Program-made: the position numbers and the translations under genes | Origin: Gemmatimonadota bacterium | GTDB taxonomy: Bacteria > Gemmatimonadota > Gemmatimonadetes > Gemmatimonadales > GWC2-71-9 | Assembly (NCBI GenBank): GCA_017889745.1 | Contig: JAGGAG010000002.1 | Coordinates: 1 to 44,858, forward strand | Direction: 5' to 3' | DNA: 44,858 nucleotides | Notes under the pieces: generated by a model | Told to the model about the DNA's origin: nothing | Database searches by the model: none | What the model saw: the letters and a program-made list of their open reading frames with translations, nothing else | Shown here: positions 95-24,472 of the stretch, piece after piece | Position numbering within the stretch: position 1 is the first letter of the stretch | How the letters are laid out: each line of letters opens with the position of its first letter

Positions 95-553
95 ATGGTG
101 AGGGACTGCATACTGGTTCTGGTCCTCACGGTCTGCGTGGCCGGTGCAGCGACGGCGCAGGCCGGCCCCGTTCACTACCGCAGCGGTCTTGTGACGTACG
201 TCCAGAAGGAAAGGGAGATCAGCCTGTCGCTGGTGCCGGGCGGCACCTTCGACGTCGATTCCGTCAGACACGGTCCGGGGGCCACCCTCGCCTATGCGCC
301 GGGGGGGGAGCGCGGAGCGACGCCGACCTTCTACCTCCACTTCTGGACCAGCGGAGGCAGCCCGTTCATCGGTGCACTCGAAGTACGTGGCGGACAGGGA
401 GGGAACGCCTATTTCGACGCTGCCGAGAGCAGGTGTACGCTGGTGATTACCCGGCTCGACGCTCAGGTGGTGGAAGGATCGGGCGCCTGCACGGGGCCGT
501 TCGAAGGGGGCGGAGCGCCGATCGCAACCTTTCGGTTCGCCGCACGGCAATAG
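95..553 (+). CDS. hypothetical secreted protein
   Basis: ATG at 95 preceded by GGGGAGG at 84-90. N-terminal signal peptide MVRDCILVLVLTVCVAGAATAQA. GC-rich third codon positions. No family recognised. Confidence 0.6.
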   Translation: MVRDCILVLVLTVCVAGAATAQAGPVHYRSGLVTYVQKEREISLSLVPGGTFDVDSVRHGPGATLAYAPGGERGATPTFYLHFWTSGGSPFIGALEVRGGQGGNAYFDAAESRCTLVITRLDAQVVEGSGACTGPFEGGGAPIATFRFAARQ

Positions 554-608: not shown

Positions 609-1997
609 TTAGAATACGAGCCAGACGAACAGGAAGAGTGAGTTGTTGCCGGAGGCATTCCTACCCGATCCGTCGTAGTCGGTCGTGCCCCCGTTGAAGT
701 CGCCGTAGGCGGTGTACTGCAAGCCGACCCGCGTGTTCTCCCAGGGATTGAAGTCCAATTCAGCGATGAAGCCGGTGGTCTTCGGACTGCCGTTGGCACT
801 ACCGTCCACCGGATTGGCGGGGTAGAGCGCCGGGTCGGTGGATCCTGTGGTCTGGAAGTATCCCGCGGTCACTCCGAGCCACTGGATGGGATAGTAGCTG
901 ACATTGAACCGCACCGTTGACAGGCTGTTGCTTGCGGCGGTGGCTCCCCCGGAGGCAACCGCCGCATCAAGGGTCTGGTCTTCGTGGATCCAGCTGGTTC
1001 GCGCCACCACGTTTCCACGTCCGGCCTTGGTTTCGAACTGGGCATCGACTCCGATGTCGGTGAAGGCATTGGTGGGACCGGTGAGCGCGTCCGGATAGAC
1101 GCTCGCGTACATCCCGTATGTGCCGATCATCAGGTACTGCTTGCCCCAATCCTTCTGAAGCGCAAGGCGCCAGTAGGGGGCGACTCCACCGATCGCCCCG
1201 CTCGCGATGTCCGGAGCAGCCTGTCCCTGGATCGCCGAGCGATAGACCGAGAACTCAGCGTATACCAGTCCGCCAATCATCGTGTAGGCGCCGAGGCCGA
1301 GGACGTTCTGGGAAAAGGCGCCATCGATTACCGGGCTTGCCATTGGGGCCGGGGCGGCATCCGAGCCGATGAACGGATATCCCCACGCTGGCGTCGAGTT
1401 CCACAGATCCTGCACGGTCGGATTGTTGTTCAAGGTCAGGCCGTAGACGACTTGGGTGCTCCCGCTGGTGTGGTTGGCGTAGCGGAAGTCGAGGTTATCG
1501 ATGCCGACTGACGCTTCAGCGCCGGAATAGGTGAGCTGCGAGAAGAACCCAACCTTGGAGGTGATCTGGCCGGCCAGGAAGACACTGAGTTCCTGCGGCA
1601 GGGAGACAGCGTCGTTCTGGGTGTCGGGTACAGCGTCATTGAGGTTCGTCATCCCCGCCGTCGCCATGGCGGAGAGCAGAGAAAAAGGACTCAGGCTGAG
1701 CTTGCCGCCGTTGGTGCTGTCCTTCTCCGTGATCAGCGTCCTGTCAGTGAGCGTGTACCCGTTCAGCTTGAACTTCCGCCCGAATGGGGTCAGAGCCAGG
1801 AACTGGTAGTGGCAGGCGCTGCAGGCCAAGCCCGTCTGCCGAGCGTAGCTGGGGACGCGCGTCGCCTCGGCGGCGCGCCCCGAGGAGCGGGCAATAACGT
1901 AGGCACGAACCATGTCATCCAACGAATCGGCACGGGCGGGAAGCGGTACGCCAGCCAGCAGGAGGACAACAGCCAGCCAGCTTCGAGAGCGGGACAT
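609..1997 (-). CDS. outer-membrane beta-barrel protein with N-terminal monoheme c motif (Cyc2-like fused cytochrome-porin candidate)
   Basis: ORF 609..2027 trimmed to the ATG at 1997, which has GGAGG 6 nt upstream. Signal peptide MSRSRSWLAVVLLLAGVPLPARA. Single CSACH motif at residues 59-63 (nt 1809-1823), preceded by PSYARQTG. The remaining ~400 aa are Gly/Tyr/Thr/Asn/Ser-rich and barrel-like, ending ...LFLFVWLVF with the C-terminal Phe typical of OM barrels. Confidence 0.7.
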   Translation of the reverse strand: MSRSRSWLAVVLLLAGVPLPARADSLDDMVRAYVIARSSGRAAEATRVPSYARQTGLACSACHYQFLALTPFGRKFKLNGYTLTDRTLITEKDSTNGGKLSLSPFSLLSAMATAGMTNLNDAVPDTQNDAVSLPQELSVFLAGQITSKVGFFSQLTYSGAEASVGIDNLDFRYANHTSGSTQVVYGLTLNNNPTVQDLWNSTPAWGYPFIGSDAAPAPMASPVIDGAFSQNVLGLGAYTMIGGLVYAEFSVYRSAIQGQAAPDIASGAIGGVAPYWRLALQKDWGKQYLMIGTYGMYASVYPDALTGPTNAFTDIGVDAQFETKAGRGNVVARTSWIHEDQTLDAAVASGGATAASNSLSTVRFNVSYYPIQWLGVTAGYFQTTGSTDPALYPANPVDGSANGSPKTTGFIAELDFNPWENTRVGLQYTAYGDFNGGTTDYDGSGRNASGNNSLFLFVWLVF

Positions 1998-2175
1998 GGA
2001 CCACCTCCAAGGGTCATGGTGCCGCAATCCCGCTGCTCCGTCGTGATAATTTGGTGAAGGTGAAAGGAATAGAACTTCAGCTTGTCGGCGGTCCCTGCGG
2101 CCGCGATAGCGTCGCCTTTTTCACGGGACGCCGATACTGTTGACACTTGAACCTGCGAATCGGAGGCATCGTCGC

Positions 2176-2571
2176 ATGACAACCAGGGCGATCGGGCTCG
2201 TCGTTCTCCTCGTCCTGATGGCCCGTCCGGGTCACGCTCAGGGTGCCGACACCGCCGCCAAGGCCGGAGCGGCGCCCGACCCCGCCGTCCTGACGCCGGC
2301 GCTCATCGACCAAGGGCGGAAGATCTTTCACGGGCCGGGCAACTGCTCTGCCTGCCACGGCGACAAGCTCGAGGGTGGTCCGGTCGCTCCATCGCTGCGG
2401 GGTCCGACTTGGCGGCACATCGACGGCAGCTACGACGCAATCATCCACCGGGTCGACGAGGGCATGCCCGGAACGGCCATGGTGGCGCACCCCGGTGGCA
2501 TCAGCGAAACCCAGGTTCTCATGGCGGCCACGTACATCTACGCCGTGAGCCACGGACTGGCCAAGCCCTAG
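2176..2571 (+). CDS. periplasmic class I c-type cytochrome (monoheme)
   Basis: ATG at 2176 with GGAGG at 2162-2166. Signal peptide MTTRAIGLVVLLVLMARPGHAQG. CSACH heme motif in GNCSACHGDKLEGG. A downstream Met-containing segment (EGMPGTAMVAH) could supply the axial ligand. Confidence 0.85.
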   Translation: MTTRAIGLVVLLVLMARPGHAQGADTAAKAGAAPDPAVLTPALIDQGRKIFHGPGNCSACHGDKLEGGPVAPSLRGPTWRHIDGSYDAIIHRVDEGMPGTAMVAHPGGISETQVLMAATYIYAVSHGLAKP

Positions 2572-2999
2572 GCCGCCGCCCCCCGCCCGTAGTACCACCC
2601 TACAACCCCGCCGTACACGAGGTGGCCCGCCAAGCTCCCCAAAACACGGGCGGGGTCCCCGCTCGAAAAAAATCCCGCGCCCACCAGCGGCATGACGACG
2701 AGTTGTGCGCCCAAGAAGACGAGCGCGCCGTACAGCGCTCCCCGCACGGCGGGCGCCCCGGGTAGCCTGTTCGCCACCGCCGCCGCGTAAAACAACGCCA
2801 GCGCGATGCCCACCGTGAAGTGGACGACCCATCCCCCGACGAACCCCACGGGGACGTGGGCCACCGTCGCCGACATGACGGTACTCAGTATCCCGCCCTC
2901 CGCCATCCGTGGAAGGCCGAGCAGCGGCTCGAGGAAGAAGAGTATCGTCATCGCCACGGTGCCGATCACGCCGGCTGCTGCCGCGCGTCTGGCGTTCAT
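2568..2999 (-). CDS. small integral membrane protein, about 4 TM segments, unknown function
   Basis: ORF 2568..3131 trimmed to MNARRAAAAGVIGTVAMTILFF (cat at 2997-2999). Four hydrophobic segments. Its stop overlaps the cytochrome c stop (convergent). Confidence 0.6.
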   Translation of the reverse strand: MNARRAAAAGVIGTVAMTILFFLEPLLGLPRMAEGGILSTVMSATVAHVPVGFVGGWVVHFTVGIALALFYAAAVANRLPGAPAVRGALYGALVFLGAQLVVMPLVGAGFFSSGDPARVLGSLAGHLVYGGVVGWYYGRGAAA

Positions 3000-3160: not shown

Positions 3161-5995
3161 TCAGGACTTCGCGTCCAGCCAGTTATCACCAGCCCCGACG
3201 TCGGCAACCAGGGGCACCCGCAGCGGCATCACCGATTCCATCTCCAGCTTCACCAATGCCTCCATTACCTCCACCTCGGCCAGCGGCACCTCGAACACCA
3301 GTTCGTCATGTACCTGCAGCAGCATCCGGCTCGAGAGCCGGCGCTCCGCGAGCCGGGTGTGGATCCGGATCATGGCGAGCTTGATGAGGTCGGCGGCCGA
3401 TCCCTGGAGCGGCGAGTTCTGCGCATTGCGCTCGCCGTAGCTCCGCAGGTTGAAGTTCTTCTCGCGCACCTCGGGGATGTAGCGGCGCCGGCCGAGCAGC
3501 GTCTCCACGTAGCCCTGCTCACGGGCCAACTCGACCTGCCGGTCGAGGAAAGTGCGCACGCCGGAGAAACGCTCGAAGTACTGCGCGATGAACTGCTTCG
3601 CCTCGTCCTGCGTGATGCCCAGCTGCTTGCTCAGCGCAAACGGCCCCTGCCCATAGATCGTCGCGAAGTTGATCGTCTTGGCGCGCGCGCGCTGCTCGCC
3701 GCTCACCATCCCGACCGGCACGTTGAAGATCAGCGCGGCCGTCTGCCGGTGGATGTCGCCACCCTGCTGGAACGCCTCGATGAACCCCGGGTCGCCCGAA
3801 AGGTGCGCCATGATGCGCAACTCGATCTGGCTGTAGTCTGCCACCACGAAGCGATTGCCTTGCGCGGGCACGAAGCCGCGCCGGATGGCCTCACCCCGCG
3901 CGGACCGCACGGGGATGTTCTGCAGGTTGGGATCCGACGACGAGAGCCGGCCGGTCGCGGCGCCGGTCTGGTTGAAGCTGGTGTGAATCCGTCCCGTGAG
4001 CGGGTTCACCTCGAGCGGCAGCGTATCGATGTAGGTGGACTTGAGCTTCTGCAGTTCCCGGTAGCTCAGGATGAGTCGCGGCAGGGCGTGCCCCATGTCG
4101 GCCAGCTGCTCCAGCACGTCCGCATCGGTGGAAGGACCGGTCTTGGTCTTCTTGAGCACCGGCAGCTGGTGCTTGTCGAACAGCACCGTCGCGAGCTGCC
4201 TTGGCGAGTTGAGGTTGAGGCTCTCACCCGCCACCTGGGCGATGTCCACCTGGAGCTGCTCCAGGTCGCGCGCCAGCTCATTGGAGAGCCGCTTGAAGAG
4301 CGCCAGGTCGATCTGCACGCCCGCCCATTCCATGTCCACCAGCACCGGCACCAGCGGCATCTCCACGTTCTCGAGCACGCCGCCCATCGGCGTGCCGGCG
4401 AGCGCCGGCGCGAACGCCGCGTGAAGCGCCAGCACCGTCGCGCTGTCGTTGCCGCAGTACGCGGCGGCGGCGGCCACCGGGATCTCGGCGAACGCGATCT
4501 CTCCCTTGCCGCGCCCCGCGACGTCGCCATAAGTCTGCATCGCGCGACCGAGGTATTCGAGCGAGAGCACGTCGATGCCGTAGGAGCGGCGGCCGGAGTC
4601 GAGCAGGAACCCGGCAACCATGGAGTCCCAGGCAACGCCCGCGAGTTCGACGCCCGCGCCGCGCAGCACCTGCCAGTCGTACTTCACGTGATGGCCCGCC
4701 TTCAGCACCGCGGGATCGGTGAGCAGCGCCACCAGCGGCAGGCACGCGGGGTCGGACAGCGGCGGAAGGTTCTTCACCGGGGCGGGTGCGGCGAGTTCGC
4801 CTCCCTGCGGGCGGTGCCCGAAGGGGAAGTACCATACGTCGGTCGGGCTCGCCGCCAGCGACAGGCCGATCAGTTCCGCGCCGCGCGGGGAGCGAGAGTC
4901 GGTCTCGGTGTCGAGCGCTACGAGCGGCGCCTCGCGGAGCCGCGCCACGATGACGGGCAGGAGGCCCGGATCGTCGATCACCGGCACCACAGGGGCCGCC
5001 GACGCCGCCACCGCGGCGGCGGGCGCTGGCGCGGCCGTGGTCTCCGCGGGCGGCGAGGCGGCAGCCACGAGCGCGCCTTCCGCCGGGGTGCTCTCCGGGC
5101 CCACGAGCTTCTTCACCAGGGTGAAGAACTCGAGGTCCGTCAGCAGCCGCGTCAGCGCCGCCTGGTCGGTGGGCCGGGGACGCAGCTCCTGCACCCCGAC
5201 GCTCACCGGAACGTCGAGGTGGATCGACACCAGCTCGCGGGAGAGCCTCGCGTTGTCGGCGTTCGCGAGCAGCGCCTCGCGCGCGCGCTTCGGCTCCACC
5301 CTCTCCGCATTCGCCAGGATCGCGTCGAGGCTGCCGTACTCGGCGAGGAGCTTCTGCGCCCCCTTCTCGCCGATGCCCTTGACCCCCGGAATGTTGTCGG
5401 AGCTGTCGCCCACCAGCGCCAGGAAGTCGATCACCTGCCCCGGCGGAACCCCGAGCCGCTCGCTCGCGTTGGACTCGTCCACCCATAGCTCTTCCACCGC
5501 CGCCGGCCCGCCCCGGCCGGGATTGAGCAGCACCACGCCCGGCCCGATCAGCTGGTAGAAGTCCTTGTCGCCGGACACGATCACCGCCTGCATCCCCGCC
5601 GCCGCTGCACGTGTCGCCAGCGTCCCGATCACGTCGTCGGCCTCGTACCCCGCCACCTCGACCAGCGGCACCCCGAGGGCATGCAACAGCAGGTCGATGC
5701 GCTCGCACGCGCGGTCGAAGTCGGCCTGCAGCTCGGCGTCGAGCTTCTGCCGGGTGGACTTGTAGGCGGGGAATTTCGCCGTGCGGAAGGAGTCGCCCGC
5801 GTCGTTGATCCACGCGAGGTAGTCGGGCTTGTGCTTCTCCCTGAGCCGGAGCAGGAAATTCACCACGCCCCACGCCGCCGAGGTGTTCTCTCCCTGCGCG
5901 GTGCGGAGCGGGCGCGAAATGAGTGCGAAGAACGCGCGATAGATCAGCGCGTACCCGTCGATCAGGAAGAGTCGCGGGGTGGCGGGCTCCATCAC
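3161..5995 (-). CDS. polA: DNA polymerase I
   Basis: 944 aa. 5'-3' exonuclease N-terminus (LIDGYALIYRAFFA). Pol domain motifs DYSQIELRIMAHLSGD and QVHDELVFE. The start is GTG at 5995 or the adjacent ATG at 5992. Confidence 0.97.
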   Translation of the reverse strand: MMEPATPRLFLIDGYALIYRAFFALISRPLRTAQGENTSAAWGVVNFLLRLREKHKPDYLAWINDAGDSFRTAKFPAYKSTRQKLDAELQADFDRACERIDLLLHALGVPLVEVAGYEADDVIGTLATRAAAAGMQAVIVSGDKDFYQLIGPGVVLLNPGRGGPAAVEELWVDESNASERLGVPPGQVIDFLALVGDSSDNIPGVKGIGEKGAQKLLAEYGSLDAILANAERVEPKRAREALLANADNARLSRELVSIHLDVPVSVGVQELRPRPTDQAALTRLLTDLEFFTLVKKLVGPESTPAEGALVAAASPPAETTAAPAPAAAVAASAAPVVPVIDDPGLLPVIVARLREAPLVALDTETDSRSPRGAELIGLSLAASPTDVWYFPFGHRPQGGELAAPAPVKNLPPLSDPACLPLVALLTDPAVLKAGHHVKYDWQVLRGAGVELAGVAWDSMVAGFLLDSGRRSYGIDVLSLEYLGRAMQTYGDVAGRGKGEIAFAEIPVAAAAAYCGNDSATVLALHAAFAPALAGTPMGGVLENVEMPLVPVLVDMEWAGVQIDLALFKRLSNELARDLEQLQVDIAQVAGESLNLNSPRQLATVLFDKHQLPVLKKTKTGPSTDADVLEQLADMGHALPRLILSYRELQKLKSTYIDTLPLEVNPLTGRIHTSFNQTGAATGRLSSSDPNLQNIPVRSARGEAIRRGFVPAQGNRFVVADYSQIELRIMAHLSGDPGFIEAFQQGGDIHRQTAALIFNVPVGMVSGEQRARAKTINFATIYGQGPFALSKQLGITQDEAKQFIAQYFERFSGVRTFLDRQVELAREQGYVETLLGRRRYIPEVREKNFNLRSYGERNAQNSPLQGSAADLIKLAMIRIHTRLAERRLSSRMLLQVHDELVFEVPLAEVEVMEALVKLEMESVMPLRVPLVADVGAGDNWLDAKS

Positions 5996-7329
5996 CGTCC
6001 GAGCCGTGACGCCACGCGCTCGAACTCCGAGCGGGATTCCGGGGTCAGGCGATATCGGTTGAACCCCGAGTCGTCCCGGAAGTAGAGCGTGAGCCGCACG
6101 CTCTGGTAGGTCCAGCGGATCACGCGCGTCTGCGTCAACCCGTTGGTGTCGAACACGTTATCCGGCTCGCCCAGGCGGATGTAGACCTCGCCGCGCTCCG
6201 TGCGCCAGCCCGGCACGCCCTCGTCCGTGAATTGTTGCGCCGCCACCGCCACCCGGCCGAAATAGGCGTTGAGTGCCTCGTTCTCGGGCGTCCCTGGATT
6301 CGGGTCCGTCTCCTTCCAGAACGTGAGCCACGCCGCCGGCCGCTGGTCCGGCTCCGCATGCTTGAGCCGGTCCACCTCCTCCGAGTGACCGAACCACTTC
6401 AGCATGCTGATCATCTCGTCGAAGTTCGTCACCAGCCATGCCGCCGAGAACGACACGACCGCCGAGACGCCCTTCTGGTCGGGGCCGCTCCCCACCACCA
6501 GCCGCAACTCGCCCAGCGCCATGCTGTCGGGCCGGAGCTTGATGAACTGGCTCTCGACCGGCAGCCCGCCGCGGAAGATGAGGGAGTCGCTGTACACCAG
6601 GCTGTCGGTGGCGGTACGCACCTCGAAGGGCACGGCGGTGCGGCCGGCATAGCCGTAGCCCTCGAGGTAGGCCAGCAGCGTGTCCCCGCCGAACGCCACC
6701 GCGCCGCGCGGGTTGAGCACGATCCGGAGGGACTGCTCCAGCCGCTCGCGACCCGTCACCTGATAGGCAAGGATCGGGGCCGAGGTCGTTGCCGTCCCCA
6801 GCGGCGACACGACCAGCGGGAGGTCGGCCTTGTTCACCGTGCCCGATTGCAGGTCGCGAATGGTTACCGTCAGCCCGTACGTGCCGGGCAGCAGCCGGAA
6901 GAACTTCTGGAACAGCACGCTTTCATCGGAGCGCCCGGTTTCCTGGAAGGTGTCCACCCGCACCGTTTCTTCCTGTCCGCCACTCACCGCGCGGCCGGTC
7001 GACGGCTGGAACACCGCGTCGACCCGGTAACGCGCGACGTACGCGTTGTTGTCCTTCTGGAACGAGAGCGCGCGGTTCTCGAGCGAGAGCCCGAGGATCA
7101 CGAGCACGGTGTCGCCCGCGCCCTTTACCTGGGCCACCGACCCGGTAAACGGCAGCGGCTCACCCGCCGAGAGGCGGCCCAGCTTCTGGAAGAGCACCTG
7201 CTGGTTGAGCAGCGCCGTGAACCCCTCGCTCGGCGCCTTGGCGTCCTCGGTACCCACGCGCTTCCACCCCCCGCATGCCGCGAGGACGCTCAGGGACACC
7301 GCGGTCACCAGCCCTCTGTACCGTTGCAT
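5992..7329 (-). CDS. GWxTD domain-containing lipoprotein
   Basis: ORF trimmed to MQRYRGLVTAVSLSVLAACGG (lipobox-like). C-terminal GWRTERGEVYIRLGEPD matches the GWxTD signature. Its stop overlaps the polA start. Confidence 0.75.
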   Translation of the reverse strand: MQRYRGLVTAVSLSVLAACGGWKRVGTEDAKAPSEGFTALLNQQVLFQKLGRLSAGEPLPFTGSVAQVKGAGDTVLVILGLSLENRALSFQKDNNAYVARYRVDAVFQPSTGRAVSGGQEETVRVDTFQETGRSDESVLFQKFFRLLPGTYGLTVTIRDLQSGTVNKADLPLVVSPLGTATTSAPILAYQVTGRERLEQSLRIVLNPRGAVAFGGDTLLAYLEGYGYAGRTAVPFEVRTATDSLVYSDSLIFRGGLPVESQFIKLRPDSMALGELRLVVGSGPDQKGVSAVVSFSAAWLVTNFDEMISMLKWFGHSEEVDRLKHAEPDQRPAAWLTFWKETDPNPGTPENEALNAYFGRVAVAAQQFTDEGVPGWRTERGEVYIRLGEPDNVFDTNGLTQTRVIRWTYQSVRLTLYFRDDSGFNRYRLTPESRSEFERVASRLGR

Positions 7330-7458
7330 GCGACTCCTCGGGGGCGACCCAATCCCGCTGGACGGGCCATCGCGCGTCATGATCCGGGACCCTGACCTGC
7401 GTCAGGGAACTCCGGGAAAGCTTGCTGGCTCGGCGAGGGCGCGCTAGCTTCGCCGTCC

Positions 7459-8349
7459 ATGACCTCCGACAGCCTGCAGGGGCGCACCATCAACGGATAT
7501 CGCCTCCTCAAGCAGATGGGCGAGGGAGGCACCGCACTCGTGTACCGCGCCGAGCATCCCGACCGCGGGACGACGGCCGTCAAGGTACTCCGACATCGCC
7601 TCGCCGAGGACCCCGTGGCCGTGAAGCGCTTCCTGAGCGAGGCGGATCTCGGCAAGCGGGTCAGCCACCCCAACATCGTCAAGACCTACGATTACGGGCA
7701 GGCCGAAGGCCTGTATTACCTGGCGCTCGAGTGGGTTGAAGGCGAGCCCCTGGCCAACTTCGCCACGCGATCAGGCCCGCTCGCCCCCACCGTCGTCGCC
7801 ACCATCGTGGAGCAGATCGGCGGGGCCCTGGCCGCGGCGCACAAGGGGCGCATCATTCACCGCGACCTCAAGCCGGCGAACATCATGTTCGACCCGGCCA
7901 CCCAGCGTGCCACCCTGCTCGACTTCGGCATCGCGCGCGACACCGAGAGTAATCCTGACGAGCGGCTCACCCGTGCGGGTTTCTTCGTGGGGACCCTCCA
8001 GTACGTCGCCCCGGAGACGCTGAGCGGCGCCCTGGTGAACGAGCAGGCCGACGTCTACAGCCTCGCCACCATTGCGTACTACCTGCTGACCGGTGAGCAC
8101 CCCTTCAATGGCAAGAACCCCCGGGAGCTCTTCCAGCAGCTCCTGACCCAGAACCCGGTTCCCCTCAGCCAGGCGACCAAGGGTCTCAAGTTCCCGCCGG
8201 CCGTCGAGGCCGCCGTCATGCAGGGGCTGATGCGGGACCTGTCGCAGCGCACCAAGACGGTGGACGAATTCGCCGCCGCGTTCTGCACCGCCGTGCGGTC
8301 TACCGAAGACCCCAAGGGCGGCTTCCTGAAGAAGCTCTTCGGGCGATGA
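7459..8349 (+). CDS. Hanks-type Ser/Thr protein kinase, soluble, kinase domain only
   Basis: GEGGTALVY glycine loop, AVK lysine, HRDLKPANIM catalytic loop, DFGIARD, APE. 296 aa with no TM segment. Confidence 0.9.
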   Translation: MTSDSLQGRTINGYRLLKQMGEGGTALVYRAEHPDRGTTAVKVLRHRLAEDPVAVKRFLSEADLGKRVSHPNIVKTYDYGQAEGLYYLALEWVEGEPLANFATRSGPLAPTVVATIVEQIGGALAAAHKGRIIHRDLKPANIMFDPATQRATLLDFGIARDTESNPDERLTRAGFFVGTLQYVAPETLSGALVNEQADVYSLATIAYYLLTGEHPFNGKNPRELFQQLLTQNPVPLSQATKGLKFPPAVEAAVMQGLMRDLSQRTKTVDEFAAAFCTAVRSTEDPKGGFLKKLFGR

Positions 8350-13150: not shown

Positions 13151-16100
13151 ATGAACGTGGAGCCGCGGATGAGTGATCCCATCGGGCCCGACCTGCGCCA
13201 GCGCCTCCAGCAAGCCCTGGGGACGCAGTACCATCTCGAACGCGAGCTGGGGCGCGGCGGCATGGGAGTCGTGTTCGAGGCCCGCGACAGTACTCTCGAC
13301 CGCCGCGTGGCCATCAAGGTGGTGCACCCCTCGCTGACCCATCACGACGGGATCGTGCGCCGGTTCCTGGCCGAAGCCCGCATGATCGCGAAGTTCCGTC
13401 ACCCCGGCATCGTGGCAGTGCACGCGGCCGGCGAGGCCGACGGCCTGCTCTACTACGTCATGGACCGGGTCGAGGGCGAAACGCTGCGCGACCGCTTGCG
13501 TCGCGAGCCACGACTCAGCGTGGATGACGCGCGGCGCATCACCGCCGACGTGGCCATGGCGCTCGACGCCGCCGCGCGCGCCGGCCTGGTGCATCGCGAC
13601 GTGAAGCCCGAGAACATCCTCATCGATCATGCCTCGGGCCGGCCCATGCTGGTCGACTTCGGCATCGCCCGGGCCATGGCCGCGGAAGCCGAGGGCGACG
13701 AGCCCACAACCGGACGCGGCGTGGCCCTGGGCACCCCGGCGTACATGAGCCCGGAACAGGCGGCCGGCGAAGACGTGGACGCGCGCAGCGACCTCTATTC
13801 GCTCGGCATCGTCGCCTACGAGATGCTCACCGGTGCGCCACCCTTCACCGGGTCGCATCGCGTCGTCATCTCGCGCCACCTCACCGACCGACCCACGCCG
13901 GTCGAGAAGGCGCGGCCCGACAGTCCCGCCGCACTCTCCGGTGCGGTCATGCGCGCACTCGAGAAGCATCCCGACGAGCGGTGGCAGACCGGCGAGGCGT
14001 TGTACTCGGCGCTGAGTGGCGAGGGCGGCGTCGCCCCGCGCCGCGCGCGGAAGCGGCGCATCGCCGTCCTCGCCGGCGCGACCCTCCTGCTGGTGGGTGC
14101 CGTGGCGGTGAGGGCGATGAACCACGACGGCCCGCCGCGCGGCGTCAACCCGCGGCAGTCGATTCTAGTGCTTCCCTTCGCCAACGTCAGGGCCGATTCC
14201 ACCGGCGAGTGGCTGCGCGACGGGAGCGTCAACATGCTCTCGCTTGCGCTCGGGCAGTGGAATGACCTTCAGGTGATCGGCCCCGAGCGGGTTCATGACC
14301 TGATGGAGGCGGCCCGCCTTCGTGACGACGGCGCCGTCGGGCTCGCCGAGGCGCGGCGCCTGGCGCGCAAGGCGGGCGTGTGGACCGTGGTGCTCGGTGA
14401 ATTCGACCGCAGCGGTGACACCCTGCGTCTCGCCGCGCGGGTCATCGACGTGGCCTCCGGCAGGCAGGTGGACCTGGCCCGCGTCGAAGCGCCCGCCGAC
14501 GACGAAGTGCGCCCGCTGTTCGACCAGCTCGCGGCACAGCTGCTGGACATCTCCGGCGCGCCCCAGGGCGAGCGGGTCGGGCTGGCCCAGGCCACCACTC
14601 GCTCGGTCGAGGCATACCGTGCCTATCTCGCGGGCGATGGTGCGCTCAACCACTGGAACCTGCCCGCCGCCGAGGCTTCGCTCCGCAAGGCGATCGCCGC
14701 GGACTCGACGTTCGGGCTCGCGTACTACAAGCTCTCGGTGACCCGCGGCTGGAGGTACGGCGCCGAGGACTCGGTCGGCGCCAATGCCATCGCGCGGGCC
14801 GAGCTCTATGCCAGCCAGCTGCCGGTGCGCGAGCAGACGATGATCCATGCCTACCGCACCTTCATCCAGGGCGCGAATGCCGACGCGCGCCGGCTCTACG
14901 AGGAGCTGCTGGCCAAGAACCCCGGCGACCCCGACGCCTGGTACGGCCTCGGTGATGCCTGGTTCCACGACGACAAACAACCGCTGCCGATGCGGTTCAC
15001 GGCCTCGATGCGCGCCTTCAAGCGCGCGCTGGCCCTCGATCCCGGCTACGCGCTCGCCTTCGAGCACGTGAACTTCATCCTCGGGCGCGCCTCGCGGCCG
15101 AACCCGCAATGGGTGCTCCTTCCCGGCGACTCGATTGCCTTCGTCTATGGCGACAAGGAGCGGCGCGCCGTCGACACTGCGGCCACGGCCCTGGCGGTGA
15201 AGCGGGCGCGCGGCGAGGCGATCCGGCTTGCGCGCGACTGGGCCACCCTGCAGCCCGCCACGGCCAAGGCACATGAGGCGTTGCTCGCGGCCTTGATCGC
15301 GGCGCAGGACTACGACGGTGCCGGCAATGAGGTGGCGCGCTTCCGGGCCGTGATCCCGACGCACCCCGAGCTGCCGTTCGACGACGCTCGCATTCGGTTT
15401 GCCTCGGGCGATGCGCCGCGCGCCGCCCGCCAGCTGGGCGTATCGATCGATTCGCTCACCCCCGAGGACCTGCGGTCGATCTCGGGCGCCACCGACGCGG
15501 CCGAACGGCTCACCATCGCAGCCAACGTGCTCGCCTACCAGGGCAACGTCGGCCAGGCGGCAAAGCTCATCGACCTCGCCAATCGCGTGCGCTTCGGCGA
15601 TCCCGTCCCGGGCACGCCGGAGGCGAACGAACGGGATGCGTGGAACTGGCGGATGCAGGGGGAGCTCTACGCCGCGGTCGGCGTTCCCACCGCCGGCATG
15701 CGGCGCATCTGGCAGAGTGCAGCCGAGGCGAGCCGCTCCGTGCCTCCCGAGAAGCGCGCCAAGCTGCTTGCCGCCGGCGGCGCCGCGGCGGTGGGCCTCC
15801 TCACGTCGGCCACTCCGGATGAATCCGCCGTCACGGAGATGCAGGCCATGGGCGGCGCGGTGCCGGCCAAGGAAGTGCGGGCGCTCATGGCCCTCGAGCA
15901 CAACGACCAGGCCGCTGCGAGGAAGGCGCTGGCCGAGCCCGACTCGATGACGATGTCGATGAAGGGCCCGTCCTACCTCGTGTTCCGCCGGCCGCTCGCA
16001 GCCCAGGCGTACTACCTCCTCGGCGACTACGAGCATGCGCTCAAGCTGCTCGAGGGATTCGACGGCCCCGAGCTCTACGCCGACCAGTTCGACATGCGCT

Positions 16101-16282
16101 GGGGGATCGTCGGGCGTGTGCGCCTCCTCCGCGGTGCCGTCCTCGAGAAGCTCGGCCGCCCCGACGACGCCCGCGAGCAGTACCGGCTGGCACTGGCACA
16201 GTGGACCCAGGCCGACCCTGACTTGCAGGTGTTTGTGCAGGAGGCGCAGCAGAAGCTGGCGCAGCTGCAGGAACGGAGTTGA
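13151..16282 (+). CDS. membrane Ser/Thr protein kinase with large extracytoplasmic/TPR-like C-terminal region
   Basis: GRGGMGVVFEA, AIK, HRDVKPENIL, DFGIARA, SPE. One TM segment (IAVLAGATLLLVGAVAV). About 700 aa of helical-repeat-rich C-terminus. An alternative ATG lies at 13169. Confidence 0.9.
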   Translation: MNVEPRMSDPIGPDLRQRLQQALGTQYHLERELGRGGMGVVFEARDSTLDRRVAIKVVHPSLTHHDGIVRRFLAEARMIAKFRHPGIVAVHAAGEADGLLYYVMDRVEGETLRDRLRREPRLSVDDARRITADVAMALDAAARAGLVHRDVKPENILIDHASGRPMLVDFGIARAMAAEAEGDEPTTGRGVALGTPAYMSPEQAAGEDVDARSDLYSLGIVAYEMLTGAPPFTGSHRVVISRHLTDRPTPVEKARPDSPAALSGAVMRALEKHPDERWQTGEALYSALSGEGGVAPRRARKRRIAVLAGATLLLVGAVAVRAMNHDGPPRGVNPRQSILVLPFANVRADSTGEWLRDGSVNMLSLALGQWNDLQVIGPERVHDLMEAARLRDDGAVGLAEARRLARKAGVWTVVLGEFDRSGDTLRLAARVIDVASGRQVDLARVEAPADDEVRPLFDQLAAQLLDISGAPQGERVGLAQATTRSVEAYRAYLAGDGALNHWNLPAAEASLRKAIAADSTFGLAYYKLSVTRGWRYGAEDSVGANAIARAELYASQLPVREQTMIHAYRTFIQGANADARRLYEELLAKNPGDPDAWYGLGDAWFHDDKQPLPMRFTASMRAFKRALALDPGYALAFEHVNFILGRASRPNPQWVLLPGDSIAFVYGDKERRAVDTAATALAVKRARGEAIRLARDWATLQPATAKAHEALLAALIAAQDYDGAGNEVARFRAVIPTHPELPFDDARIRFASGDAPRAARQLGVSIDSLTPEDLRSISGATDAAERLTIAANVLAYQGNVGQAAKLIDLANRVRFGDPVPGTPEANERDAWNWRMQGELYAAVGVPTAGMRRIWQSAAEASRSVPPEKRAKLLAAGGAAAVGLLTSATPDESAVTEMQAMGGAVPAKEVRALMALEHNDQAAARKALAEPDSMTMSMKGPSYLVFRRPLAAQAYYLLGDYEHALKLLEGFDGPELYADQFDMRWGIVGRVRLLRGAVLEKLGRPDDAREQYRLALAQWTQADPDLQVFVQEAQQKLAQLQERS

Positions 16283-16350: not shown

Positions 16351-16354
16351 TGAT

Positions 16355-16753
16355 GGGTCGGACGTGATGGTCGCGGGTGCTTCGGCACTCGAGGAAAGTC
16401 CGAGCTCCATCGGGTAGACTGCCAGGTAACGCCTGGGCGCCGCAAGGCGACGGACAGGGCAACAGAAAGCAAACCGCCCGGCGCAAGCGCAAGCGAGTGA
16501 CGGGTAAGGGTGAAATGGTGGGGTAAGAGCCCACCGCGCTGCCGGCAACGGGAGCGGCACGGTAACCCCCAGTCGGAGCAAGGCCAAATAAGCGGCGAGG
16601 TGTGACCCACACCGCCCCCCGTCCGGTCCCCTCGGGGATTCGGGCGGTAGCCGCGGGTAGGCTGCTCGAGGCGACCGGCGACGATCGTCCCAGACAGATG
16701 ACCATCCCCAGGGCTCACGCCAGGGGAACAGAACTCGGCTTACGGTCCGACCC
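16355..16753 (+). ncRNA. rnpB: RNase P RNA, bacterial type A
   Basis: GAGGAAAGTCCG at 16391-16402. GGGTGAAATGGTGGGGTAAGAGCCCACC block near 16508. ACAGAACTCGGCTTAC at 16728-16743. P1 pairing of GGGTCGGAC (16355-16363) with GTCCGACCC (16745-16753). Ends are approximate to +/-5 nt. Confidence 0.93.
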
Positions 16754-16755
16754 AC

Positions 16756-16797
16756 GGCCGCCTCCGGCACTCGTTGCCGGAGGCGGCCGTCCTTTGT
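16756..16797 (+). terminator. intrinsic terminator after rnpB
   Basis: Perfect 14-bp stem GGCCGCCTCCGGCA (16756-16769) / TGCCGGAGGCGGCC (16775-16788) with loop ctcgt, followed by GTCCTTTGT. Confidence 0.65.
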
Positions 16798-20999: not shown

Positions 21000-22112
21000 T
21001 CAGTCGACCAGCCTCAACGGCATCACCAGCGCCAGGAAGCTCGCCGGATCATCCCAGCCCACCGGCTCGCAAGTGGCGGCGCGCTCGGGCGCCTTGAAGG
21101 TCATCCGCACCTCGTCGGTGGGGATGTACTTGAGCACCTCGAGCATATAGGCGGCGTTGAAGCCGATCTCCAGCGTGTCCCCCTCGTACGTAACCGTGAC
21201 CTCCTCCTGGGCTTCGCCCAGGTCGGGGGTCTGCACCGACAGCTTGCAGGAACCGTTGGCGAAGGCCATCCGGATCCGGTGCGTCTGGTCGCTGGCCACG
21301 ATGCTCATGCGCCGGAGCGCCGAGGTGATGGCACCCTTGTCGGCGGTCATCACCTTGTCGTTCTCGCGCGGGATGACCTGCTCGTAGTTCGGGTACGGCC
21401 CCTCGATCAGCCGGGTAAAGACCTGGGTCGTGGGCGACCGGAACCCGAGATGATTCTCGCTCCGCGCCACCTCGATCTCGTCCTCGGCGGAGAACAGCTT
21501 CCTGATCTGCTCCAGTGCCTTGGGCGGCACGATCAGGTCGGCCTGGGCCCCGCCCGTCGTCGCAGTGGGAACGTCCATCCTGGCCAGCCTGTGGCCGTTC
21601 GTGGCCACCATCCGCATGCGGTCGGGACGCAGCTCCCAGAGCACGCCGTTCAGGATCGGACGGCTTTCCTCGGTGCTGGCCGCGAAGGCCACGTGGGTGA
21701 TGAGCTTCTGAAGGTTGCCGGCGGTCGCCTTCCAGCCGCCATCGAACTTGACCGCCGGAAAAGCCGGGAACTCATCCTTCGGCAGGCCCAGGAGCCGGAA
21801 CTTCGACCGGCCGCATTCGATGGTAACCCGCTGCTCACCCGACGCAGTGATCCTGATCGACGCATTGGGCAGCTCGCGCACGATCTCGGCGAGTTTCCTC
21901 GCTGGAACGGTGATCGACCCTTCCTGGTCGACCGATGCCGGCACGATGGTGCTGACAGCGATGTCGAGATCCGTTCCCGACAGCCTGACACCATCGTGGA
22001 TGGCCTCCACCAGGATGTTCGAGAGCACCGGCAGCGTGGTCTTGGTGGGGACACTGCCCGCCACAGCCTGCAGGCCTTCCTGGAACTGCTCGCGAGTGAT
22101 CGTGAACTTCAT
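21000..22112 (-). CDS. dnaN: DNA polymerase III beta sliding clamp
   Basis: ORF trimmed to MKFTITREQFQEGLQAVAGSVPTKTTLPVLSNILVEA (cat at 22110-22112, GAGGGG upstream). 370 aa. Lies directly downstream of dnaA. Confidence 0.97.
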   Translation of the reverse strand: MKFTITREQFQEGLQAVAGSVPTKTTLPVLSNILVEAIHDGVRLSGTDLDIAVSTIVPASVDQEGSITVPARKLAEIVRELPNASIRITASGEQRVTIECGRSKFRLLGLPKDEFPAFPAVKFDGGWKATAGNLQKLITHVAFAASTEESRPILNGVLWELRPDRMRMVATNGHRLARMDVPTATTGGAQADLIVPPKALEQIRKLFSAEDEIEVARSENHLGFRSPTTQVFTRLIEGPYPNYEQVIPRENDKVMTADKGAITSALRRMSIVASDQTHRIRMAFANGSCKLSVQTPDLGEAQEEVTVTYEGDTLEIGFNAAYMLEVLKYIPTDEVRMTFKAPERAATCEPVGWDDPASFLALVMPLRLVD

Positions 22113-22152
22113 TGCGCCCCTCATGCGTTCCGGAGAAGTACCTACCAGAACC

Positions 22153-22182
22153 TGTATATAAGAATGTAGCAGTAGTAGTAGA
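22153..22182. other. AT-rich island in the dnaA-dnaN spacer (candidate DNA-unwinding element or dnaN promoter)
   Basis: tgtatataagaatgtagcagtagtagtaga is strikingly AT-rich for this DNA and contains gta/gca trinucleotide repeats. Confidence 0.35.
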
Positions 22183-22433
22183 GGGTATGGAGATGTTGAG
22201 GAACCCTCTGATCTCCTCACCCCGGTACGACTTGCCTCACCCGCTTCGGTCAGTCTCGTTGTGGGGCATGCGGACATCTCGCCGCGTCAGCAACATCTCT
22301 TGCCGCTATTCAAGACTTTCAACGAACAACCAGTCAACATCGGGATAACCGTCCGGAAAAACTCCCGAGCCATCGTTTGCTCGCACGTGATCGATTCATG
22401 GTGATCGAGCGGTGCGACGACTGCGACACCAAT

Positions 22434-23822
22434 TTACGTCTGCGGCTGCAGCTCCATACGCGCGAGCTCCACCTTTTCGCGGAACCCGCGATCTCGCGAC
22501 ATCAACCGAGCCACCTTGTCGACACTGTGAATGACAGTGCTGTGATCCCTGCCACCGAATGCCTGGCCGATCTCGACCAGCTGCATCTGCAGGAGGTCGC
22601 GAGCGAGGAACATCGCGATCTGCCGCGGAACAGTGAGCGTCTTGATCCGTGCCTTGGACCGCAGCCCTTCCGGCGTGACACCCCAGCGACGGGCAACGAC
22701 CTCCTGCACCTTGTTGATGGTGGGGAGGGCCTTGGTGGGTGCTCCGGTGTCGTCGGACGGCCGGATGCGGTCGGCCAGTGCCTCACGGGCCAGTTCGATC
22801 GAGACTTCCTTGTGCTTGAGCGACGCATACAGGAGGAGCTTGATGATGCATCCCTCCAACTCGCGCACGTTCGACCGGACGTGCTCAGCGATGAACCGGA
22901 GCACGTCGTCCGGGATCGCCATTTCCAGGTGATCCTGCTCCGCCTTCTTCCGCAGGATCGCGATCCGGTGCTCCAGGTCGGGCTGGCCGATGTCCGCCAC
23001 CATGCCCCACTCGAACCGGCTCACCAATCGGGCCTCGAGCCCCGGCAGCTCCTTCGGCGGCCGGTCGGAGGTCAGCACGATCTGCTTGTTGGCCTCGTAC
23101 AGCGCGTTGAAGGTGTGAAAGAACTCCTCCTGCGTCATTTCCTTGCCTTCGAGGAAATGCACGTCGTCCACGAGGAAGAGGTCGACATCCGCCCGGTAGC
23201 GCCGGCGGAACTCCGGCATGGTCCGGCTGTGGATGCTCTCGATGACTTCGTTGATGAACTGCTCCGCGCCCACGTACAGCACGCGCGTATCGGGCAGGCG
23301 CCCGATCACGGTGTGTGCAATCGCCTGCATGAGGTGCGTCTTTCCGAGTCCCGTCGCACCGTAAATGAAGAGCGGATTGTACGTCTTGCCGGGTGATTCA
23401 CTGACGGCATGAGCTGCGGCTGCGGCGAGTTCGTTGGACTTGCCGATGACGAACGTCTCGAAGGTGTAGCGCTCGTTGAGCGGCTGGGCGCTTGGATTGA
23501 CCTTGGCGGCAGGCGCAGCGGCGCTCGGCGGCGGCGCCACGAAGAGGTCCATCTGCGGGCGCTTGGTGCGCTCTTCCTGCACCTTGAAGACCACGCTAAC
23601 TGGTTGGCCTGCGGCCTTTTCGGCCAGGCGCGACAACACGGCCGCGTGCTTCGACTCGTTCCACTGCACCGCGAACTGGTCAGGTGCGCCCACGATCAGC
23701 GTTCCGTTCTCAAGTGAGATCGGCGCGGCTGGTTCCAGCCACGTGCGGATCGTCTGTTCAGAAAGCTCCCGGAGCGCATCGTCGAGCAAGCGCGTCCAGA
23801 GATCTTTCGCGGAAAGTTGCAT
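22434..23822 (-). CDS. dnaA: chromosomal replication initiator DnaA
   Basis: ORF trimmed to MQLSAKDLWTRLLDDAL (cat at 23820-23822). Walker A IYGATGLGKTHLMQAI. C-terminal DNA-binding domain (RQIAMFLARDLL...IGQAFGGRDHSTVIHS). Confidence 0.97.
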   Translation of the reverse strand: MQLSAKDLWTRLLDDALRELSEQTIRTWLEPAAPISLENGTLIVGAPDQFAVQWNESKHAAVLSRLAEKAAGQPVSVVFKVQEERTKRPQMDLFVAPPPSAAAPAAKVNPSAQPLNERYTFETFVIGKSNELAAAAAHAVSESPGKTYNPLFIYGATGLGKTHLMQAIAHTVIGRLPDTRVLYVGAEQFINEVIESIHSRTMPEFRRRYRADVDLFLVDDVHFLEGKEMTQEEFFHTFNALYEANKQIVLTSDRPPKELPGLEARLVSRFEWGMVADIGQPDLEHRIAILRKKAEQDHLEMAIPDDVLRFIAEHVRSNVRELEGCIIKLLLYASLKHKEVSIELAREALADRIRPSDDTGAPTKALPTINKVQEVVARRWGVTPEGLRSKARIKTLTVPRQIAMFLARDLLQMQLVEIGQAFGGRDHSTVIHSVDKVARLMSRDRGFREKVELARMELQPQT

Positions 23823-23867
23823 CGAAATCCAGGCTACAGCGGCGGAGGGACGATCCAAGGGCGCGAG

Positions 23868-23896
23868 ATATTACGGGTCGCGTGTGGATAAGTCAA
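23868..23896 (-). promoter_or_regulatory. candidate sigma70 promoter of dnaA
   Basis: The minus strand reads TTGACT (plus 23891-23896), a 17-nt spacer, then TAATAT (plus 23868-23873), about 45 nt upstream of the dnaA ATG. Confidence 0.55.
23883..23891 (-). promoter_or_regulatory. perfect DnaA box TTATCCACA
   Basis: Plus strand tgtggataa at 23883-23891. It overlaps the last base of the -35 and the spacer of the candidate dnaA promoter. Confidence 0.75.
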
Positions 23897-23898
23897 CC

Positions 23899-23928
23899 TT
23901 GACCCTGACGTGGTGGCGCGGCTAGGTT
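23899..23928 (+). promoter_or_regulatory. candidate sigma70 promoter of rpmH-rnpA-yidD-yidC
   Basis: TTGACC (23899-23904), an 18-nt spacer, then TAGGTT (23923-23928), about 30 nt upstream of rpmH. Confidence 0.4.
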
Positions 23929-23957
23929 GTCGGGCTCATTGGAGGACTGTTAATCGT

Positions 23958-24119
23958 ATGATGCCGACATATCGTCCGCGCAACAAGAAGCGCATTGCCA
24001 AGCATGGTTTTCGTGCCCGCATGGCCGACCGCTGGGGCCGGGAAGTCCTGTCCCGCCGGCGGAAGAAGGGGCGGAAGCGGCTTACCGTCTCCCTCCCGTC
24101 GAAGCACGGACGGGCCTGA
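23958..24119 (+). CDS. rpmH: 50S ribosomal protein L34
   Basis: [50 protein letters not shown] at 23941-23946. The start is ATG 23958 or 23961. It carries a short C-terminal tail (SLPSKHGRA). Confidence 0.93.
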
Positions 24120-24151
24120 CCACCAGAGAGGGCTTTCCGCGGTCGCGCCGC

Positions 24152-24469
24152 TTGGCGCGTGCAGCCGACATCCGGCGGTGCCTGGCCAAGGGTCGGCGCC
24201 GCCGGTCCGCGTTTCTCGACCTGATCTGGATTGACAATGCACTGGGCCATCCGCGCATGGGATTGATCGTTCCCCGATTCCAGGCGACTGCGGTGGCCCG
24301 CAATCGTCTCAGGCGACGGCTCAAGGAAGTGTGGCGTCGCGAGGTGCAGCCGGTTCAGCCGGCGTTCGATCTCCTGGTACGGGCCCGTCGCGAGGCCTAC
24401 AGCGCGTCGTACGATGCATTGCGCGCCGAGATCCTGGGGTGGCGGGACGCCACGTGCCCCGCCCGGTGA
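24152..24469 (+). CDS. rnpA: RNase P protein component
   Basis: Basic protein directly after rpmH with the RNR-like segment ARNRLRRRLKE. The TTG start at 24152 is the first ATG/GTG/TTG in frame. In-frame upstream codons read FPRSRRL, so the true N-terminus may lie slightly upstream. Confidence 0.85.
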   Translation: MARAADIRRCLAKGRRRRSAFLDLIWIDNALGHPRMGLIVPRFQATAVARNRLRRRLKEVWRREVQPVQPAFDLLVRARREAYSASYDALRAEILGWRDATCPAR

Positions 24470-24472
24470 ATC

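Follow-up and report, generated by a model that had tools for sequence, protein, structure and literature searches.

The window analysed here is a stretch of 44,858 nucleotides (nt) from a Gemmatimonadota bacterium of the order Gemmatimonadales (contig JAGGAG010000002.1 of assembly GCA_017889745.1, positions 1 to 44,858 of the forward strand). Close to its start lies a gene, termed here the cyc2-like gene, which almost certainly encodes a Cyc2-family protein, a fused monoheme cytochrome-porin of 462 amino acids. The favoured reading of its function, which is given a probability of roughly 0.6, is that the product would be exported through Sec, would bear a heme in an outer-membrane barrel, and would oxidise Fe2+ and relay the electron to a cytochrome c encoded alongside. 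No marker gene for microbial iron oxidation is in wider use than Cyc2, and whether its homologs outside the known iron oxidisers oxidise iron is a question posed by the family’s own authors. The locus stands for a large environmental clade, with at least 6,879 protein clusters (90% identity) matching the protein at E ≤0.001 and the closest named relatives belonging to the Gemmatimonadales.

Homology to Canonical Cyc2

Reference sequences for canonical Cyc2 were obtained by searching a genome collection for rus operons with rusticyanin as bait. The bait was verified as identical to PDB 1CUR. The locus of Acidithiobacillus ferruginosus (L002), whose rusticyanin is 100% identical to 1CUR, has the operon order cyc2, diheme cyc1, a cupredoxin-like open reading frame (ORF; cup), coxB, coxA, coxC and rus. 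The cyc2-like protein aligns with the Cyc2 of six rus-operon loci across residues 42-462 at 27-34% identity, and with the Acidithiobacillus sequences at 28-34%. The phmmer E-values range from 7e-35 to 7e-56 (Z = 1.84e9), with the four Acidithiobacillus-type loci being the closest of the six (5e-45 to 7e-56 at the same Z). The corresponding blastp E-values are 1e-47 to 3e-65, against a threshold of ≤1e-5. Against a hidden Markov model (HMM) made from these six canonical Cyc2, the cyc2-like protein scores 212.5 bits in one end-to-end alignment, and the next-best ORF of the window reaches only 5 bits.

Studies by Keffer et al. (2021; PMC8406198) have reported 17-23% identity between Cyc2 clusters and 27-35% identity among the Cyc2 of A. 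ferrooxidans, Thiomonas, Ferrovum, Dechloromonas and GJ-E10. Cluster relations were gauged here from pairwise identities over 427 trimmed, well-aligned columns. On this measure the cyc2-like protein is 35% identical to canonical Cyc2 and ranks 26th of 137 in closeness to it. This value exceeds the between-cluster range and lies at or just above the top of the A. ferrooxidans-group range. Since the identity exceeds the published between-cluster values, membership in the A. ferrooxidans cluster (Cluster 2 of McAllister et al. 2020) is the most likely; the assignment is provisional, the references compared being all rus-operon Cyc2.

The best 120 of the matching clusters are all at least 62% identical to the cyc2-like protein, and the named entries among these 120 are each a “hypothetical protein” of Gemmatimonadales. 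An exhaustive scan of 1.84 billion cluster representatives returned 2,594 at E ≤0.001 and 426 at E ≤1e-30, and a public protein collection contains an identical 462-residue copy (P0001). Searches of Pfam, NCBIfam and PDB sequences with the protein gave no match. As a Pfam scan of canonical Cyc2 gave no match either, the empty Pfam result is uninformative. A match on the Acidithiobacillus plasmid record CP084173 was rejected as a reference, as it has the same identity and score as the Acidiphilium cryptum plasmid NC_009469 and is not a rus-operon cyc2.

It was also noted during the collection of references that a complete rus operon, or a copy of it, sits on plasmid-annotated records of 51 kb and 62 kb in A. 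ferruginosus (L002, pCF3-2) and A. ferrianus (L005, p1MG), respectively. A. ferrianus has an additional, more divergent chromosomal rusticyanin (L016, 80% identity).

The Heme Site and Signature Motifs

Cyc2 has been defined by a length of at least 365 amino acids (most having at least 400), one CXXCH, the upstream motif AXPXFAR[Q/K][T/Y] and a 16-strand porin, and the motif is called unique to Cyc2 (Keffer et al. 2021, PMC8406198). At 462 amino acids the cyc2-like protein is well within this length. It has a single CXXCH (CSACH, residues 59-63), whose C59 and C62 are its only cysteines. In an alignment of 147 homologous sequences, the columns of C59, C62 and H63 are invariant. Exactly one CXXCH is present in each of the 253 retrieved homologs that have the motif, and across these the CXXCH and its flanking 30 residues form the most conserved stretch of the protein. 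A further 17 retrieved homologs lack CXXCH. These appear to be N-terminally truncated fragments, because they are short (244-420 amino acids) and most of their matches begin beyond query residue 100.

The upstream signature stands three residues ahead of the heme site and reads RVPSYARQTGLACSACH in the window protein versus ALPSFARQTGWSCAACH in canonical Cyc2 (L002). The wider surroundings of the heme site are in identical register, with RVPSYARQTGLACSACHYQFLALTPFGRKFKLNGYTLT in the window protein and ALPSFARQTGWSCAACHTSYPQLTPMGRMFKLLGFTTT in canonical Cyc2, such that PSYARQT-GLA-CSACH is aligned to PSFARQT-GWS-CAACH. P49, R53, Q54, T55 and G56 are each at least 90% conserved among the 147 homologs. 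Six of the seven positions of PXFAR[Q/K][T/Y] agree; the literal pattern fails at a conservative F-to-Y change, and the motif was counted as present. At this aromatic position, the close homologs are split between Y (73) and F (46), and a Y is likewise present in 23 of 133 representatives of the family.

A second deviation lies downstream. The PXL located four residues past CXXCH is also known from other cytochromes and is not a screening criterion, and its proline is said to help stabilise the heme (PMC8406198). The cyc2-like protein does not have this consensus feature and carries L-A-L (residues 67-69) in its place. An L-x-L is found in 117 of 119 close homologs, while P-x-L is found in 100 of the 133 family representatives and in canonical Cyc2 (YPQL). 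As P-x-L is described as not unique to Cyc2, the L-A-L is regarded as clade-specific variation that does not exclude the protein from the family. The position of the heme site also differs, with CXXCH starting at a median of residue 54 in close homologs versus 43 in the wider family. The window protein has approximately 24 extra residues between the putative signal peptide and the motif.

Predicted Structure of the Porin Domain

The AlphaFold2 model of the cyc2-like protein was built on the 147-sequence alignment, and strands were assigned by DSSP. The mean predicted local distance difference test score (pLDDT) is 92.2 and the predicted template modelling score is 0.86. Residues 44-78 are modelled as short helices around the heme site (pLDDT 90-98), followed by the 16 long strands of the predicted barrel. 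The best PDB matches of the model in Foldseek are the 16-strand porins OmpT, OmpF, Omp32, OprP (2o4v) and OprO (4rjw), with E-values of 3e-9 to 7e-7, and also BpsOmp38. For OprP, OprO, OmpF and Omp32, the sequence identities are 8-15% and the template modelling scores 0.40-0.48 on query length. OprP and OprO are also the templates reported for Cyc2 (PMC8406198). No solved Cyc2 structure is present among the PDB matches listed.

One loop of the barrel is well conserved. Between strands 5 and 6, conservation across the 147 homologs reaches at least 90% at G186, N190, N191, P193, D197, N200, P203 and P208, and canonical Cyc2 contains the same block (VNNTPTAMDLWNTTPDWQAPF). The pairwise comparison of the window protein and canonical Cyc2 reads NNNPTVQDLWNSTPAWGYPF versus NNTPTAMDLWNTTPDWQAPF. 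On account of the strand order in the model, the loop may be the equivalent of the pore-constricting loop L3 of the general porins.

Gene Boundaries and Export Signal

The cyc2-like ORF starts with ATG, and a GGAGG is located 8-12 nt 5′ of this codon. The sole alternative start is a TTG at 2027, ten codons upstream, which would give a protein of 472 amino acids. An N-terminal signal peptide of the Sec type, which is a further criterion for Cyc2, is predicted from reading the sequence by eye: there is a basic n-region, a hydrophobic core and an A-R-A ahead of D24. AlphaFold2 confidence is low over this segment. The signal peptide is not of the lipoprotein type, because it contains no cysteine. 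The protein ends in ...VWLVF, with the aromatic F462 as its final residue.

The GC content at third codon positions is 0.79 in the cyc2-like gene, versus 0.92 in polA and 0.82-0.83 in dnaA and dnaN. A recent horizontal transfer of the gene was considered and is poorly supported, as its value is near that of dnaA and dnaN.

A preliminary description of the stretch had anticipated much of the above from the letters alone. It had read 609-1997 on the minus strand as a 462-residue secreted protein with a single CXXCH, with which the ORF, the translation and the residues all agree. The barrel-like sequence up to ...VWLVF that it described coincides with predicted strands spanning residues 108-461. 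The pre-heme block that it gave, P-x-F/Y-A-R-x-T-G, matches the published motif bar the F-to-Y change. Its identification of a Cyc2-like fused cytochrome-porin is upheld by full-length homology to rus-operon Cyc2, which takes in both the heme segment and the whole barrel. It had suggested a structure prediction and a survey of CXXCH among orthologs as checks; the former gave a confident 16-strand barrel with the CXXCH in a well-modelled segment, and the latter gave the invariant heme site described above. The refutation tests that it listed, where run, all favoured Cyc2.

The Neighbouring Cytochrome c Gene

A class I cytochrome c of 131 amino acids with a predicted signal peptide is encoded divergently from the cyc2-like gene and is the candidate periplasmic redox partner. 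Its ATG is preceded by a GGAGG. Its heme motif, again CSACH, spans residues 57-61 (nt 2344-2358), and the distal methionine would be M97, which lies in a G-M-P motif. It scores 33.1 bits against PF13442 (Cytochrome_CBB3; cut-off 27) and 26.4 bits against PF00034 (Cytochrom_C; cut-off 21.3). Among solved structures, CcoP domains and cytochrome c6 are nearest to it. An NCBIfam match to the “cytochrome 579” of Leptospirillum was dismissed, as it reaches 21.9 bits against a cut-off of 280 and covers the heme motif only.

The neighbourhood was surveyed in long-contig relatives and in 80 metagenome loci, with at least 1 kb of sequence required on both sides for the pairing counts. An ortholog of the cytochrome c adjoins the cyc2-like gene, divergently, in eight of nine close relatives (at least 56% identity), and a class I cytochrome c lies next to it in 21 of the 36 loci overall. 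Within 1.5 kb of the cyc2-like genes, the related loci contain 39 class I cytochrome c ORFs; the 248 kb beyond contain none. In distant relatives, the cytochrome c gene is mostly downstream on the same strand, as is Cyc1 in the rus operon. Four relatives (L023, L025, L026 and L028) retain the divergent cytochrome c of 131-132 amino acids, together with a gene for a DUF6789 membrane protein, while their outer flanks are wholly different. The pairing is a conserved, family-wide linkage and not a coincidence. It had been suspected in the preliminary description, which reported a monoheme cytochrome c with a signal peptide at 2176-2571, transcribed divergently 178 bp away, and regarded it as suited to a periplasmic electron acceptor or donor. 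Coordinates, gap and the class I assignment proved correct, and the pairing is upheld by the conserved synteny.

The 178-bp intergenic region presumably carries the promoters of both genes. A scan of this region for the sigma-70 consensus gave no match. In relatives, 5 of 11 such regions (L025, L026, L032, L033 and L038) have a phased direct repeat, TTCAY-N6-TTCAY, at 60-88 nt upstream of the start of the cyc2-like gene, against a background rate of 0.035 per kb per strand. The repeat has an 11-bp period, at times with a third unit, and it resembles either a promoter element or the binding site of a transcription factor of the response-regulator type. The window copy is degenerate (approximately 2054-2074, minus strand).

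Proposed Function and Alternative Explanations

In the favoured reading, the cyc2-like protein would be exported via Sec, and one heme c would be attached at C59 and C62 with H63 as an axial ligand. The C-terminal ~355 residues would form the 16-strand outer-membrane barrel, and the short N-terminal heme segment would reside at or inside its periplasmic mouth. Dissolved Fe2+ would enter the pore and be oxidised at the heme, as has been proposed for characterised Cyc2. The electron would then pass to the soluble periplasmic 131-residue cytochrome c and onward to a terminal oxidase or a different acceptor, the gene for which would lie elsewhere in the genome. The present analysis shows that the protein belongs to the family, has the barrel architecture and a conserved heme site, and is linked to a cytochrome c gene in a conserved manner. 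That heme is attached, that the protein resides in the outer membrane, where the heme sits with respect to the barrel, that Fe2+ is the substrate and which way the electrons flow are inferred by analogy with the characterised proteins. Fe(II) oxidation has been demonstrated for three members of the family (PMC8406198). That the present protein oxidises Fe(II) in vivo is a tentative proposal, to which slightly less than even odds are given.

Several observations weigh against this reading. The heme environment of the clade may differ from that of canonical Cyc2, because the proline of P-x-L is replaced by leucine, and the 147-sequence alignment contains no family-wide conserved methionine or second histidine that could serve as the sixth heme ligand. 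Keffer et al. (PMC8406198) have cautioned that homologs distant from the characterised Cyc2 need verification and may have other functions. Two relatives, L027 (74% identity) and L040, have no neighbouring cytochrome c gene. Furthermore, a scan of the 20 larger genes of the window found no oxidase, rusticyanin or other iron-oxidation or respiratory gene, in line with the remark in the preliminary description that no terminal oxidase or iron-oxidation gene was visible.

As the main alternative, a true Cyc2-family protein could have a role other than energy-yielding Fe(II) oxidation, such as detoxifying Fe(II) at the cell surface, oxidising a different metal, e.g., Mn(II), exporting electrons to acceptors outside the cell, or sensing redox conditions. 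Such a role is plausible because the hosts are heterotrophic, the authors of the family warn about distant homologs and the clade has lost the P-x-L proline; overall it is considered unlikely. In Ca. Manganitrophus, Mn(II) oxidation has been hypothesised to begin with a Cyc2 homolog, and the homologs of Nitrospira were not assignable to iron or manganese. In one survey, putative heterotrophs supplied most of the new Cyc2-like sequences (PMC9769843), and in Gemmatimonadota iron oxidation could not be distinguished from iron reduction (PMC11316326). The window genes scanned include no linked genes for carbon fixation. However, all three of the family members that were tested biochemically oxidise Fe(II), and the pore loop and heme segment of the canonical Fe(II) oxidase are both conserved in the cyc2-like protein. 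A single heme within a narrow porin is also ill suited to touching solid acceptors. It could be supposed instead that the protein is an ordinary diffusion porin with a chance CXXCH and no heme, since its barrel resembles the general porins and Pfam, NCBIfam and PDB searches were empty. This is effectively refuted: canonical Cyc2 is equally devoid of a Pfam match, the most conserved part of the protein is the very stretch around the CXXCH, and the homology extends over the full length of a proven heme-bearing outer-membrane Fe(II) oxidase.

The place of the cytochrome c in the proposed relay can be questioned separately. It may form a two-gene unit with the adjacent DUF6789 gene, in which case its proximity to the cyc2-like gene would be inherited gene order within one clade. 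One locus (L111) has a cytochrome c (51% identical over 106 residues) beside a DUF6789 gene, where the nearest 4 kb contain no cyc2-like gene, and L027 and L040 keep a cyc2-like gene without either neighbour. The close relatives are 56-79% identical, such that shared ancestry could explain part of the synteny. Against this, cyc2-like genes of more distant relatives (43-53% identity) also have a homologous cytochrome c gene beside them but arranged differently, either downstream on the same strand or upstream and co-directional, which indicates that the linkage has arisen repeatedly or been maintained. The confinement of cytochrome c ORFs in the surveyed loci to within 1.5 kb of cyc2-like genes, and the retention of the three-gene group in the four relatives with wholly different outer flanks, also count against a separate unit, which is judged quite improbable.

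Comparison with Known Electron Conduits

The closest characterised counterpart is the Cyc2 of the A. ferrooxidans type, the product of the first gene of the rus operon (Cluster 2). The two are alike in their full-length homology (212 bits to the six-sequence HMM), one CXXCH with PS[F/Y]ARQTG ahead of it and LTPxGRxFKLxG[F/Y]T after it, the NN.PT..DLWN.TP.W..PF loop, the 16-strand barrel and the adjacent gene for a c-type cytochrome. They differ in that the canonical protein belongs to acidophilic iron oxidisers and is encoded in the rus operon, whereas the window host is a neutral-pH member of the Gemmatimonadales and the window contains no cyc1, cox genes or rusticyanin. In place of the diheme Cyc1 encoded downstream, the partner in the window is monoheme, of 131 amino acids, and divergent. 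The canonical ORFs are about 485-516 amino acids long, versus 462 in the window. Canonical Cyc2 has F and P-x-L where the window protein has Y and L-x-L, and the latter has ~24 more residues before the motif.

The closest named relatives in annotated collections are homologs from the Burkholderiales (Caballeronia, Ralstonia solanacearum, Paraburkholderia) and Acidiphilium, with 33-43% identity across ~90% of the protein and E-values down to 3e-92. Burkholderia and Ralstonia are among the heavily sampled genera of the Cyc2 database (Keffer et al., PMC8406198). The Caballeronia homolog differs from the window protein in having the standard PAFARQTG and FPEL motifs, and its gene is located between those of a high-potential iron–sulfur protein (HiPIP) and a diheme-type cytochrome c on a megaplasmid. 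The Caballeronia arrangement resembles the Iro/Cyc2/Cyc1 set of acidophile iron oxidation, yet it occurs in a soil heterotroph.

Cyc2PV-1 of Mariprofundus ferrooxydans (Cluster 1) and Cyt572 of Leptospirillum (Cluster 3) share the signal peptide, the single heme, the motif and the 16-strand porin, and both oxidise Fe(II) in vitro (PMC8406198). They are expected to be more distant from the window protein than is the Acidithiobacillus Cyc2, as judged by the published between-cluster identities only. The MtrAB, MtoAB and PioAB systems likewise carry electrons across the outer membrane through a heme-enclosing barrel. However, these consist of two proteins, a 26-strand barrel and a membrane-spanning decaheme cytochrome, and can contact solids, whereas the cyc2-like protein combines a single heme and 16 strands in one polypeptide. 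OprP, OprO, OmpF and Omp32 are alike in that they provide the best structural matches to the barrel, but they have no heme segment, CXXCH or Cyc2 motif.

The preliminary description put the locus forward as a possible “unappreciated” module, which overstates the case. Surveys with FeGenie have noted that Cyc2 homologs are “widely annotated” in marine Gemmatimonadota (PMC11316326) and are present in the hydrothermal-chimney metagenome-assembled genomes of 17 phyla, including Gemmatimonadota (PMC9769843), and many heterotrophic phyla are covered by these reports. As the group is thus already known, the locus adds a member to it, and is a sound annotation and not a discovery. What is added are the motif changes of the clade, the N-terminal extension of ~24 residues, the divergent monoheme partner, the DUF6789 neighbour and the phased repeat in relatives. 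A strict PXFAR filter would exclude the window protein and miss most of its clade. The altered motif near the heme constitutes a natural variant for probing the effect of P-x-L on heme stability and redox potential, and the cytochrome c and DUF6789 genes, being conserved neighbours, could be examined for co-expression. If the clade oxidises Fe(II), the Gemmatimonadales would have a share in iron cycling that is uncounted by current models.

The DUF6789 Neighbour

The DUF6789 gene encodes an integral membrane protein of 143 amino acids and is convergent with the cytochrome c gene, which it overlaps by 4 nt. Such a gene is adjacent in seven relatives (L023, L025, L026, L028, L033, L037 and L038) despite their differing outer flanks. 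It occurs in either orientation and, among cyc2-like loci, is confined to the close clade. The AlphaFold2 model is a helical bundle (pLDDT 89.5), for which Foldseek returned no PDB match at E <1. Two histidines are near-invariant, with H60 conserved at 97% and H126 at 100%. In L111, the DUF6789 gene is divergent from the cytochrome c gene, and distant DUF6789 homologs adjoin thioredoxin-type genes and no cytochromes. In view of the L111 pair and these thioredoxin-type neighbours, the membership of DUF6789 in the cyc2-like module is uncertain. A highly speculative extension, considered very improbable, is that, in an abundant Gemmatimonadales clade, the variant Cyc2 (Leu for Pro, extended N-terminus), its dedicated cytochrome c and DUF6789 together form a complete conduit of three tiers leading from the outer membrane to the inner one. 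DUF6789, with H60 and H126 embedded in the membrane, would in this case be an unrecognised inner-membrane redox component, e.g., a small heme-b or metal-binding electron acceptor. Were this true, widespread heterotrophic Gemmatimonadales would gain supplementary Fe(II) oxidation or another form of extracellular electron uptake.

Genomic Context

The window is chromosomal housekeeping DNA, with genes that include polA, a GWxTD protein, Ser/Thr kinases, the RNase P RNA, dnaN, dnaA, yidC, ddl, mutS and holA (features are listed in Table 1). It probably includes or adjoins the chromosomal replication origin, in the region 21000-26458. The GC content falls to 61% at 22-24 kb, near dnaN and dnaA. 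Near the cyc2-like locus, Rfam and ARAGORN gave no RNA family match and no tRNA gene.

Table 1. Positions of the features discussed, in the window and in related loci (aa, amino acids).
Feature	Locus	Position	Strand	Basis or remark
Secreted 152-aa protein, convergent with the cyc2-like gene	Window	95-553	+	No family match
cyc2-like gene, 462-aa fused monoheme cytochrome-porin	Window	609-1997	-	ORF and translation, canonical Cyc2 homology, HMM, AlphaFold2
Predicted 16-strand beta-barrel, residues 108-461, then F462	Window	615-1676	-	DSSP on the AlphaFold2 model, 16 long strands
Conserved strand 5-6 loop, residues 186-210, G.TLNNNPTVQDLWNSTPAWGYPF	Window	1368-1442	-	Conservation and canonical Cyc2 block
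L67-A-L69, position of the family P-x-L after the heme site, Leu for Pro	Window	1788-1796	-	Homolog comparison
Heme c attachment site, C59-S-A-C-H63 (CSACH)	Window	1809-1823	-	Sole CXXCH
Cyc2 signature, P49-S-Y-A-R-Q-T55, three residues ahead of the heme site	Window	1833-1853	-	Canonical alignment and conservation
Putative signal peptide, residues 1-23 (MSRSRSWLAVVLLLAGVPLPARA), then DS	Window	1929-1997	-	Read from the sequence by eye
Divergent intergenic region, 178 bp, between the cyc2-like and cytochrome c genes	Window	1998-2175	.	Sequence
Monoheme class I cytochrome c, 131 aa, predicted signal peptide; candidate periplasmic redox partner	Window	2176-2571	+	Pfam, motifs
DUF6789 integral membrane protein, 143 aa	Window	2568-2999	-	PF20587, 47.9 bits (cut-off 27.1)
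Ser/Thr protein kinase genes, one fused to TPR repeats	Window	7459-8349 and 13151-16282	+	
RNase P RNA, bacterial class A	Window	16354-16758	+	Rfam RF00010, 274.6 bits
dnaN	Window	21000-22277	-	
dnaA	Window	22434-23858	-	
yidC	Window	24728-26458	+	
Extracytoplasmic function (ECF) sigma factor	Window	39316-39963		
PAS-GGDEF-EAL protein	Window	40598-43357		
DUF6789 gene	L023	6983-7420		
DUF6789 gene	L025	6934-7407		
DUF6789 gene	L026	6960-7394		
DUF6789 gene	L028	6987-7418		
DUF6789 gene	L111	4001-4462		
HiPIP, cyc2-like (43% identical) and diheme-type cytochrome c genes	Caballeronia sp. SBC1 plasmid pSBC1_3 (L001)	4933-7950		734-kb replicon

The region is rich in signalling genes. The secreted 152-residue protein is kept in place only in the two closest relatives with DNA at this position, L028 and L030, in which its homologs are 66% and 58% identical, respectively.

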